From IMG/VR virus record IMGVR_UViG_2579778666_000022: a stretch of 27,848 nt of DNA; one strand, given 5' to 3'. Made by a program: the position numbers. Shown piece after piece: positions 24,001-27,000 of this stretch. Position 1 is the first letter of the stretch. Each line of letters opens with the position of its first letter. The DNA comes from a virus (Duplodnaviria; Heunggongvirae; Uroviricota; Caudoviricetes).

Positions 24001-27000
24001 ATTCCCGTATACAGAAAGGTATTCACCGTCTTCGTGTGGATACCCATTTCACTGGCAAGGCGACAGGGTCTCGACTGGCGGTAGACATAACCGAACATCA
24101 CCACCATCTCTGACATCGTCAGCGGGCGGGCAGCACTGTTATACGTCCAGACGCCGTTGTGTATGGCATCACTTATCTGCTCACCATCACGGAGCAACTC
24201 CGCATCCAGTTGCAGAAAATGACGCCCCTGGAACATACACCGCATCAGCCTGCCCAGCAGGCCATCACTGATTATCAGCCAGGATTCGTCAAAGTCCGGG
24301 ATATAACGGCGGTTCTCCGGCAGGAAAAACTCCCTCGCCAGTATCACACTGTGTTCCTTCAGTAACGCCTGCAGGCCATATTCCAGGTAGCGGTTCCTTG
24401 TGGCCAGAATTACCTTCATCGCAGCACCTTCCTGTTTTTATGCCCCATGAAAAAAAACGGCAGGCAAAACTCCTGTGCCTGCCGTCATGCTTCATGTCAC
24501 TGTCAGCAATTAAAACTCGAAGTTCACACCTACGTTGTAGGAAACATCACCGTCGCTGGCTGCAATACCTGCTTTGGCTGCGGTCTGCTCGTTGAAGCGG
24601 TAACCCACACCAACAGCCACAGCCTGTTTGTCACTGTAACCACCCAGGGCTGCCGTGGCGTTGAATTTACCCACACTGTACGGCTGGAACAGACCGGACA
24701 GCGCCGCACTCTGTGCTGCCGCACGTTTCATTTCTTCGTGGTTTTCACGAATCTGGCGCTGCTGGCTGTTCAGGCGTGCGTTATGCTCCTGCAGCTGGCG
24801 GGAGTGATTCTGGATAGCCTGGGTGTTACTGCGGGTTCTGTTGTCGAGGCTGACAACAGCATCATTCACACGAACGTTGCCCGGTGCGCTCTGGTCAAGT
24901 GTATAGCTGCCATCTTTATTCTGGTAGACAGTAGTGTCAGCCTTAATATCTGCGACTGTTTGTTTTACAGAATAACGCTCACCGCTTCCCTGATTTTCAT
25001 CCAGCGTGATATTGCCATCGGCATCAAGGGCAAATGTAGTGGCATTTTTCAGGTCATTTACATTTGTGCCGAGACGGTTGAATTCCTGTAACAGCGCTCC
25101 ATTACCATCTTTAGCCGCTGTTAGCGCAGCTTCTGAACTCATGCCGTTACTGATAGCAATATTGTAATCTTTCGCAGTTTTACTGGTGATAACTGAATTA
25201 ACACCATCAATATTAGATTTTATTTTTTCAATATCAGCTACGGTTATATTCTGTAAATTTCCTTCTGTAATAGAAGGGAACTCAGGTGGTAAAGATATGC
25301 TATAACGGGCCGCTTCACCTGCAACTTGAGCCACCATCTGCAGTACAGATTTGTCTTTAACCAAATCTGGGTTCTTTTTTGAAAAACGATCAATAGCAGC
25401 ATTAACCTCGTCAGTATTGACGGTAGTAATCATGCCATTTTTAATATTTATAACCCCAGTAAAAATATCTTTATTATCTTTCGCATGAACAATTCTGGCC
25501 GACTCAGTAGTATCATCAACAATTATCTTATAATCACCAATAGCCACCACCTGTGCAAAAGAGTTAACACTCACCAGCATCAATCCGGCAACAGCAGAAG
25601 AAAGAATAGTCTTTGTAAATTTCTTGCTCATGTGGTATACCCTATAAAATTATCTGTATACAAATAAAACAGTTCAACATCAGATATATAAAGAAAATCT
25701 GATGTCTCGCCGCTCTCATGAGCTTACTCCTGAAGAAATTCCGAATTTTAATATGAAGTTTTTCGGAATTTCCTTACTATAACGTCGGTGATATCACGTC
25801 CGCGAAGGGATATCCGCATTACGACTGGCCTGCCACTTATGCTGTCTCTTTATTCATCAACAATTTGTATACGGTTACATCTTTAATTGTGAAGTCAGTC
25901 ACAAAAAGAAGAAAGTCAAATAATCAAATTGTGCTTAACTGTTTACATCAGCACAATCTGATGACCATTCAAGGACGCACTAAATTATTTTCAGCAATCC
26001 CTCAGCCTACGAAAATTCTGTATCCCCTGAATGTTTAATTTACACTCTTTTTATGCAATTATTCTTTCGACTATAAAAACACCACTATCTCATGTATGAC
26101 CTTGGGGAGCGTGCCGTCTCCCCGTTTTTTCGCTTACAGTTTCATGACGACTTTCAGTTTCAGGAATCAGCAGTTACCATGCAATACGAAAATTCTGTAT
26201 TGCATCCGCGCCCTCATCTCAATATCTTTGTCGCCGGATAAAAATAACTATCAACCACAAGTATCATGCTCTCGGGGAGCACGCACTCCCCAGTTTTTTA
26301 TCTTTGACAGGGGTGAAGGAGGCCGTTGCATCTCCTTTAATTATCATTGCCAGATTATTTCCTCGACCTGAGTATTCTTTATTTAGCCATAGCTTTGTAG
26401 CAAGGGGCTGGAGCGCCCCTCTTTTTTTCACCTGTCAGCCATGCCGACCTTATACGCCAGTATAGCTTCCGCATCACCCAGCGCTTCAATCTCTTTTTTC
26501 ATCGTGCGCTGTCTGACATGAATTTCCAGACCTTTGGTAAACATCGCCTGCTCTGCAGCAGCACTCAGAGCAATCAGTGTTTCAGCGTCCATCGGTACGT
26601 CATTATTGTCCGCATCCGTCCAGAAAAACTGCTCCGGCAGTTTCCCCGCTTTCGCTGCCGCCACCGACGGCTCAAGACGCGTCTGCGTTGACTTCCCGTA
26701 GTCCCATTTACGCCCATTGTGCTCAAACGTGTAGTTCGCCGCTTCCATCGCATTACGCCAGGCATTAATTTCCACCTTTTTCCGTTCACGTGACTGTGTT
26801 AAAGCTTCCGGCGGTTCTTCATACGGCTTAATCTCTCCATACCTGCCGGAAATTAAATCAGTAAAAAGTTGTCGTCCGTGATTTTCCGGATCATTTTCTG
26901 ACGCAGTAAAAGGAAACCATTGCTCACCAATTTTTATCTCACAGGAAATATTACCCAATCGAGTATATACCGCCCCCCTGACGTCTGTTACAACAATCGC

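Follow-up and report, generated by a model that had tools for sequence, protein, structure and literature searches.

The stretch of DNA analysed here, referred to as the window, is a 27,848-nucleotide (nt) sequence from the virus record IMGVR_UViG_2579778666_000022 and is part of a 933W/POCJ13-like prophage of the Stx-phage type. With the Escherichia phage PhiR5_2 (PV340546) it has 96.7 % identity over 86 % of the window length. The region in question is the 796-bp spacer between two minus-strand genes, tfa (26428-27024), a DUF4376 tail-fibre-assembly-like gene that corresponds to orf-191A of the prophage P-EibA, and eib (24510-25631), whose product carries a YadA-anchor domain. All genes flanking the repeat modules of this spacer lie on the minus strand, and orf-156 and orf-60 are the other minus-strand genes of the neighbourhood. 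In POCJ13, a relative without eib, cor occupies the slot that holds the eib cassette in the window. Such insertions into late operons, consisting of a promoter, a gene and a terminator, are known as morons (Juhala et al. 2000, cited in PMC4104026). Judged by its sequence, the spacer probably, though by no means certainly, carries two tandem small RNA (sRNA) genes resembling AsxR and AgvB, together with a terminator at the end of tfa. No account of the tfa-eib spacer was found in the literature, where the papers by Sandt and Hill were outside the search and the EibG paper covers 168 bp of upstream sequence only.

Tandem modules and hairpins of the tfa-eib spacer

The central part of the spacer is a diverged tandem duplication with a unit of ~170 nt, in which the region ~25968-26135 recurs at 26141-26305, both on the plus strand. 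The first unit comprises an upstream box, a predicted promoter, the predicted sRNA-1 and the hairpin T1. Local alignment of the two modules gave a score of 77 compared to 28.9 ± 5.0 in shuffles, and a similarity was still evident with the hairpins removed (z 5.1; 0/500 shuffles). These statistics support the tandem diverged modules proposed in the initial annotation of this region, although the duplicated unit is larger than described there. Both modules contain an exact plus-strand copy of the 16-nt repeat TACGAAAATTCTGTAT, at 26008-26023 and 26185-26200, which is one base longer than the repeat originally noted at the module starts. These are its only two matches in the 27.8-kb window even with three mismatches, where 0.17 would be expected by chance. 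The copies are located at -61 to -46 and at -51 to -36 from the predicted starts of sRNA-1 and sRNA-2, respectively. Copy 1 is the last stretch of a near-invariant block upstream of eib, and the alleles diverge sharply just after 26023. Single changes in the 16-mer occur in two alleles, and a search of IMG/VR with this sequence returned eib loci as the only related matches. Its exact identity in paralogues that are otherwise ~60 % identical is the best hint in the sequence that the 16-mer matters.

In module 2, box copy 2 forms the centre of a perfect palindrome, ATGCAATAC (26179-26187) and GTATTGCAT (26197-26205) separated by 9 nt, whose reported 9-9-9 geometry was found to be exact by direct reading. 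Its right arm holds the predicted -35 element TTGCAT of unit 2. The palindrome is broken in one allele (L018) and absent in the type-C alleles described below. Readings of the 16-mer or the palindrome as LexA, CRP, IHF or recombinase sites, compared only informally, gave no convincing match.

Four plus-strand hairpins with T-rich tails, T1, T2, H3 and T4, lie within 330 bp. An intrinsic terminator was defined as a G+C-rich stem of at least 5 bp with a 3-8 nt loop and, directly behind the stem, a T-run on the strand that is transcribed. Under this definition T1, T2 and T4 are predicted terminators on the plus strand only, and H3 passes weakly. T1 (26104-26130) pairs GGGGAG (26104-26109) with CTCCCC (26118-26123), followed by G and T6 (-12.5 kcal/mol). 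T2 (26274-26299) has the same stem arms (26274-26279 and 26286-26291), followed by AG and T6 at 26294-26299 (-11.6 kcal/mol), so that its T-run stops one base before the end at 26300 that had been given for this hairpin. H3 (26314-26339), an addition to the earlier description, consists of AAGGAG...CTCCTT with a weak T-rich tail, and T4 (26403-26428) pairs AGGGGC (26403-26408) with GCCCCT (26415-26420), followed by C and T7 (-11.6 kcal/mol). A terminator scan of 25400-26700 reported five sites on the plus strand and none on the minus strand, compared to 0.9 ± 1.0 in shuffles. Direct reading and scan therefore both confirm the three terminator-like hairpins that had been placed on the plus strand, antisense to the annotated genes. 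RNA folding, which had been suggested as a check, recovered the terminator hairpins, and folding of the whole modules showed no structure beyond them (z -0.3 to -1.9). The orientation of the hairpins excludes the proposal that they insulate eib from readthrough, since readthrough from tfa into eib would run on the minus strand, where no hairpin of the spacer has a following T-run.

The third of the originally described hairpins, T4, belongs to the 3' end of tfa, and the final T of its T-run also forms part of the stop codon of this gene (26428-26430, minus strand). In the eib-less prophages L222 and L223, in which a ykgJ-like gene converges on tfa, the DUF4376 tfa genes likewise have a hairpin of this architecture, but with other stem sequences, directly at their stop codon. 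A T4-like hairpin, again with a different stem sequence, is located at the tfa end of L224, an eibG-like locus of E. coli JNEC-KY173. At these convergent boundaries, as at T4, the hairpin with its T-run is directed towards the tail genes and lies no more than ~10 nt from the tfa stop, but the stem sequences are unrelated between the loci. Since a hairpin of the same architecture occurs at the tfa end in eib-less and in module-less loci, T4 is the boundary terminator of the tfa module and not a third module. Unlike in L222 and L223, no protein gene converges on tfa in the window, so the only candidates for T4 to stop would be the predicted sRNAs or stray antisense transcription. Alignments of the T2-T4 interval revealed no significant similarity to the modules or to the AsxR/AgvB/EcOnc03 family. 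A third sRNA unit in this interval was considered because ATTATTTCCTCGAC resembles ATTATTCTTTCGAC of unit 1 by eye, and was rejected as the alignments were not significant. The tfa-end hairpins of L222 and L224 were likewise similar to the anti-sRNA family by eye, but not significantly so.

Another plus-strand hairpin with a GGGGAGC stem (GGGGAGCATGTTGCTCCCC and T7) is located at 23743-23768, where it starts 6 nt past the stop codon of orf-60 and, antisense to every gene around it, marks the distal boundary of the eib cassette. The sequence upstream of it is not AsxR-like. As it also occurs in the eib-less POCJ13, this hairpin is part of the phage backbone that borders the moron slot. It was rejected as a third module copy, its upstream sequence having a marginal similarity to module 2 (z 2.6) and none to module 1 or the family. 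For the adjacent open reading frame (ORF) of 567 amino acids (aa), listed with a GTG start at 23664, an ATG near 23584 is the more probable start, in agreement with gp60 of POCJ13 (541 aa), and this would leave a spacer of ~180 nt containing the hairpin.

Taken on their own, the hairpins could be read as a terminator array in which T1, T2, H3 and T4 act as a one-way barrier to plus-strand transcription that would enter the tail genes from the eib side or from flanking DNA, with the RNA bodies being irrelevant. Their concentration on one strand, the recurrence of an antisense-oriented terminator abutting the tfa stop at unrelated tfa loci, and the further terminator at 23743-23768, present even without eib, are consistent with such a barrier. 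Nevertheless, we regard this explanation as improbable. It leaves unexplained why the 16-mer is conserved and why the 40 nt that precede T1 and T2 specifically resemble AsxR, AgvB and EcOnc03, T1 is dispensable, and neither a plus-strand promoter nor a gene that would need four terminators is evident upstream.

Predicted small RNAs and their likeness to AsxR, AgvB and EcOnc03

AgvB, AsxR and EcOnc03, referred to as anti-sRNAs, are Hfq-bound sRNAs of about 51-62 nt from prophages of enterohaemorrhagic E. coli (EHEC). In each, a 5' arm of 14-18 nt that varies between the RNAs is followed by a 3' part that is conserved, and the genes occupy moron sites, where they converge with the gene upstream (Tree et al. 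2014, PMC4104026). Family sequences were taken from the supplement of that paper and the loci from Sakai. Anchoring on the mapped start of the family (CGAT...) sets the predicted 5' ends in the window at 26068 and 26236. This gives an AsxR-like sRNA-1 of ~63 nt (26068-26130, plus strand), composed of CGACUAUAAAAACACCACUAUCUCAUGUAUGACCUU, the T1 hairpin and U6, and an EcOnc03-like sRNA-2 of ~64 nt (26236-26299, plus strand), composed of GGAUAAAAAUAACUAUCAACCACAAGUAUCAUGCUCUC, the T2 hairpin, AG and U6. They would start with CGA and GGA, respectively, and the predicted fold is the one of the family, a single-stranded A/C-rich 5' arm (36-38 nt) followed by the terminator hairpin and U6. Both units lie on the plus strand, convergent with tfa and divergent from eib. 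The two small RNA genes that were among the options of the initial annotation are thus favoured by the evidence, but with a changed anatomy, in which RNAs of ~63 nt would begin near 26068 and 26236, and the 16-mer and the palindrome would lie upstream of, or over, the promoters and not at the RNA 5' ends.

Putative sigma-70-type promoters can be assigned to both units. The predicted promoter P1 (26034-26062, plus strand) would consist of TTTAAT (26034-26039), a 17-nt spacer and the extended -10 element TGcAATTAT (26054-26062), 5 nt before the CGA, which is the spacing found at AsxR (TAAAAT-GATTT-CGA). For P2 (26200-26228, plus strand), the candidate elements are TTGCAT (26200-26205) and TATCTT (26223-26228) with a 17-nt spacer and 7 nt to G26236. 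P2 is collinear with the family promoter TTGCGC-18-TAAAAT, which has 5 nt to the start, and its -10 element is invariant in all alleles, but the type-C alleles lack its -35 element.

The similarity to the family was assessed in several ways. Pairwise tests of the 80 nt located 5' of each hairpin against dinucleotide shuffles (n=1000) resulted in z 4.6 for module 1 and AsxR (0/1000), z 3.9 for module 1 and AgvB (2/1000) and z 3.5 for module 2 and EcOnc03 (6/1000), and the control hairpins T4 and 23743 were not significant against the family. An empirical null was obtained from the 40 nt upstream of 649 terminator-like hairpins in 1.73 Mb of other phage DNA. Here, the null scores had a median of 14, a 99th percentile of 21 and a maximum of 30, whereas unit 2 scored 33 and unit 1 scored 29, values reached by none and by one of the 649 controls, respectively. 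In the reciprocal comparison with unit 1 as the query, all 122 family members scored 23-30 and the best of the 649 controls 20. Finally, both strands of the complete window were searched, with no filters applied, using a covariance model (R1) built from six family RNAs. The best match of this model was 26236-26298 (14.9 bits, E 0.074 on a rough calibration) and its second-best 26068-26130 (12.1 bits, E 0.34 on the same calibration), both on the plus strand and full length, and the model recovered the sRNA-2 site in every allele type.

In the alignments, TTTCGACTATAAAAACACCACTATCTCATG of unit 1 corresponds to TTTCGATTATTAAA--ACGAGTATCTCATG of AsxR, and GATAAAAATAAC...CAAGTA--TCATGCT of unit 2 to GATAAAAATGAC...CAAGTATCTCATGCT of EcOnc03. 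The units and the family have the motif (G)TATC(TC)ATG(C) just 5' of the terminator in common, and GATAAAAAT is present both at the 5' end of EcOnc03 and in sRNA-2. Further features they share are a length of ~51-64 nt, a CGA start (GGA in sRNA-2), an unstructured, variable and A/C-rich 5' arm, a 6-bp G+C hairpin followed by U6, and a -10 element 5-7 nt before the start. Unit 2 additionally has the -35 element TTGC.. of the family. The setting is also alike, a moron junction on the strand opposite to the late genes and convergent with the upstream late gene, and AsxR at the stx2 moron has the same topology as the predicted sRNAs at the tfa-eib junction. Like morons in general, the units combine a self-contained promoter-like element with a terminator in a variable slot, but their cargo would be RNA instead of protein and they are oriented against the late operon.

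There are also clear differences. The conserved 3' region of the family, ~42 nt long, is composed of AGUAUCUCAUGC(N2)UU, the terminator GCCCGAACCCAYUCGGGC and a U-run. Its motif half is kept in the units, as an exact TATCTCATG in unit 1 and as GTATC--ATGCT in unit 2, but the terminator stem is GGGGAG/CTCCCC in place of GCCCGA/TCGGGC. The units are located at the tfa-eib junction in the tail-fibre region and not at the PR'-moron site, and they form a tandem pair with a common 16-nt upstream box, unlike the family. A convergent partner of the STnc100 type was not found in the window by the Rfam scan. An A+T-rich palindrome replaces the opposite-strand terminator that overlaps the -35 element in the family. 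GCAATACGAAAA is found upstream of the -35 element both in unit 2, where it is part of the palindrome, and in the AsxR/AgvB/EcOnc03-family loci, where it is complementary to the T-tract in this opposite-strand terminator. For this reason, the 16-mer may be a remnant of that terminator, and it may or may not now serve as an upstream promoter element or a protein site.

A tandem arrangement of related sRNA genes has a precedent in the E. coli core genome. OmrA and OmrB are adjacent, paralogous, Hfq-dependent sRNAs of ~80-90 nt, whose conserved 5' end is the seed. They resemble the units as tandemly duplicated sRNA genes with diverged centres, conserved ends and a conserved upstream control region. 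Their sequence is unrelated, and the element that the units have conserved exactly, the 16-mer, precedes the predicted start.

Several results weigh against the interpretation as sRNA genes. The part of the family that is most conserved, the terminator stem, is the part that differs in both units, and the scores of model R1 are low. The Rfam models RF02702 (AgvB) and RF02703 (AsxR) remained below their gathering thresholds of 56 and 63 bits and had no match at E <= 10 on slices of 901, 81 and 79 nt, whereas the same library reported 88 bits for AsxR, 96.5 bits for AgvB and 56.6 bits for EcOnc03 at the Sakai loci. A sequence-only family profile including the promoter (nhmmer) reached E 6.4 for module 1 in the search of the whole window, which is not significant. 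The predicted promoters match the consensus at 7/12 positions (P2) and at 7/12 positions plus the TG extension (P1), and a consensus scan reported no plus-strand promoter here, with both P1 and P2 below its threshold. Duplex energies with GcvB and FnrS were no better than those of shuffles, and the mRNAs of the window, including the eib leader and other start regions, were likewise uninformative as targets. This test has no discriminating power, since it also misses the known pairs AgvB-GcvB (z -1.5) and AsxR-FnrS (z -0.4). By Rfam criteria the units are not members of the AsxR/AgvB/EcOnc03 family, and the similarities described here identify them as distant relatives.

Distribution and allelic variation

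The spacer element was found in 27 of 5426 complete E. coli genomes (~70 places, median of 3 per genome), in nine phage records, in several IMG/VR contigs and in 46 gut-metagenome contigs, and always between the same tfa and an eib gene. The tfa homologues of Citrobacter, Salmonella, Yersinia and others do not have the element, and an IMG/VR search for module-1-type units (TATCTCATG-N-GGGGAGC) returned eib loci and chance matches only. Four allele types can be distinguished. In the type-A allele, which is that of the window, both modules are intact. Type-B alleles have a module-1 body of ~76 % identity and a destroyed T1 (-2.7 kcal/mol). Type C, represented for example by P-EibA, has a 114-nt deletion between ATC microhomologies that removes T1, the adjoining spacer sequence, box 2 and the palindrome. 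An allele in the gut-metagenome contig OGGU01003443.1 (L225, ~1240-1330) is an exact box-by-box recombinant without module 1, in which module 2 and its predicted promoter are joined to the conserved block upstream of eib.

The conservation of the spacer is uneven. The 390 bp upstream of eib (25632-26023), including box 1, are 97-99.6 % identical among the alleles, while the eib passenger domains fall below 60 %. The module-1 body is ~75 % identical, the module-2 body with T2 95-100 %, and in one group of alleles the identity of the T2-T4 interval is 80 %. In the KY176-type allele, which is divergent, H3 is kept and strengthened through changes in the loop and the inner stem (AAGGAGGC/GCCUCCUU, -14.8 compared to -9.5 kcal/mol), and T4 keeps its stem with a different loop. 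The body of sRNA-2 and its -10 element are invariant in 17 genome and virome alleles and in the 46 gut-metagenome contigs, although the flanks differ by 20-25 %. Furthermore, the T2 stem variant GGTGAG carries the change A26292G, which adds two pairs at the stem base, in 9/9 metagenome alleles. On this sequence evidence, sRNA-2 is the conserved copy and probably functional, whereas sRNA-1 is intact in the window allele but dispensable and decaying elsewhere.

The alleles also provide evidence against the interpretation as sRNA genes. In type B, sRNA-1 would have no terminator, and in type C it is cut by the deletion, which also takes the -35 element and the box of sRNA-2. The IMG/VR allele L027 has GGTGAG without the second change at 26292, and with a distance of just 16 nt between the two sites, their association could also be due to linkage. 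Since the element is confined to 27 of 5426 genomes and always has the same context, its conservation may reflect recent spread and not selection.

The main rival explanation is that the units are relics, either descendants of anti-sRNA-type cassettes or scars of cassette exchange, that are no longer expressed or functional, with their conservation resulting from recent spread and from gene conversion among co-resident eib prophages. The several copies per genome favour such a homogenisation. The decay of module 1 with the loss of T1 by degradation or by microhomology deletion, the natural recombination between the two 16-mers, the missing -35 element in type C, the weakness of the predicted promoters and a mosaic with sharp identity breaks at 26023/26024, ~26200 and ~26310 are all in line with this explanation. 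In addition, the eibG-like locus L224 does without the modules. It has the same tfa and orf-156 neighbours but a 363-bp spacer (2626-2988), and only ~40 bp next to the start codon are in common with the region upstream of eib in the window. On the other hand, the body, -10 element and T2 of sRNA-2 are intact in every allele seen while both neighbouring sequences vary, the T2 stem mutation is paired with a stem-extending change in the metagenome alleles, and both units of the window keep an intact terminator and promoter-like elements at the spacing of the family. We therefore consider purely relic units a realistic but clearly less probable explanation than sRNA genes. The recombination scars suggested earlier are borne out as history by the mosaic junction, the deletion allele and the 16-mer recombinant, but they are not the whole account.

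A further possibility concerns control at the DNA level, with the 16-mer and the palindrome acting as operators for a regulator of eib, for example IbrA/IbrB, and the hairpins being incidental. The 16-mer is exact between paralogues of otherwise limited identity, and the sequence upstream of eib is conserved while the passenger domains diverged beyond recognition. In addition, ibrA (4297-5523, plus strand; PAPS-reductase/DUF3440) and ibrB (5508-6152, plus strand), both according to the PhiR5_2 annotation, are located on the same prophage. Such an operator role is nevertheless quite unlikely. The boxes are 377 and 554 bp upstream of eib, whereas complementation with eibG from a plasmid used 168 bp of upstream sequence (PMC13534694), and there are eib loci without box 2 and the palindrome, such as P-EibA (AF151091, which annotates eibA as an immunoglobulin-binding protein), or entirely without boxes, as in L224. 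Independently of this question, PhiR5_2 annotates ibrA and ibrB, ~19 kb from eib, as co-activators of prophage gene expression, and ibrB enhances Eib expression according to a paper citing Sandt et al. 2002. With both on one prophage, the regulator and its reported target would travel together. A perfect 11-bp inverted repeat, GAAATTCCGAA-N16-TTCGGAATTTC (25735-25772), precedes the eib start by ~104 nt. The AF151091 record lists this repeat as a stem_loop, and the arms of the repeat loosely resemble the 16-mer core GAAAATTCTG.

Two plus-strand ORFs, 26092-26241 (49 aa) and 25865-26038 (57 aa), could in principle be small protein genes with the hairpins as their terminators, and PhiR5_2 annotates both as hypothetical proteins. 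This can practically be discounted, since neither length nor sequence is conserved (24-49 aa and 36-109 aa across the alleles), a polymorphic 11-nt duplication shifts the frame, the first ORF is absent in type C, and no Shine-Dalgarno sequence precedes either start. The duplication in question, ATGACCATTGA, is located at ~25960.

Two other features of the window lie outside the spacer. A copy of what we take to be IS1 (27253-27848), recognised by its InsB- and InsA-like minus-strand ORFs and a terminal repeat, adjoins what is left of the tail-fibre gene upstream of tfa, a short piece from 27025 to ~27250, so this gene appears to be disrupted in the prophage of the window. The Rfam family sRNA-Xcc1 (RF02221) has two plus-strand matches above the gathering threshold, at 2808-2896 and 3345-3430 (69 and 73 bits), which adjoin and overlap the start of an ORF for an AntA-type antirepressor.

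Possible function and significance

If the units are sRNA genes, each would be organised as the upstream 16-mer box, a weak sigma-70-type promoter, a CGA or GGA start, a 5' arm ending in (G)UAUC(UC)AUG(C), and a hairpin with U6. By analogy with the family, the RNAs would bind Hfq, anchored by the terminator and the U-tail, and the variable A/C-rich 5' arm may pair with a partner RNA, either a core-genome sRNA that would be sponged or an mRNA. Any transcription on the plus strand, also that reading through from the sRNA genes, would then end at T4, and perhaps at H3, and not continue antisense into the tail genes. A more specific scenario, which we put forward as speculation, is that the eib cassette travels with its own pair of anti-sRNA-type genes, of which sRNA-2, and sRNA-1 where intact, would be expressed in lysogens under a shared regulator bound at the 16-mer and would use the distinct A/C-rich 5' arm to sponge a core Hfq-dependent sRNA or act on a host mRNA.

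The units are plausible as new, distant members of a known sRNA class. If expressed, they would be relatives of the Hfq-bound sRNAs that are most abundant among those of EHEC prophages, but relatives that lack an annotation and are missed by the current Rfam models. They are located next to eib, an adhesin gene associated with virulence, in E. coli of commensal, uropathogenic and Shiga-toxigenic type. Even as relics, they would leave a locus that still records the duplication, decay and recombination of a cassette at a mosaic junction. If the interpretation as sRNA genes is true, cassettes of the anti-sRNA type also occur away from the PR'-stx site. A search by architecture, for an arm that is short and unstructured followed by the UAUCUCAUG motif and a terminator, in antisense at moron junctions, could reveal them, and they would provide new 5' arms whose targets could be sought. 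Should the more specific scenario of a regulatory pair within the eib cassette also hold, the AsxR/AgvB class would extend to a second site in the genome, to a second type of terminator and to new specificities for targets, and the acquisition of an eib prophage would rewire the post-transcriptional control of the host along with its surface adhesion.

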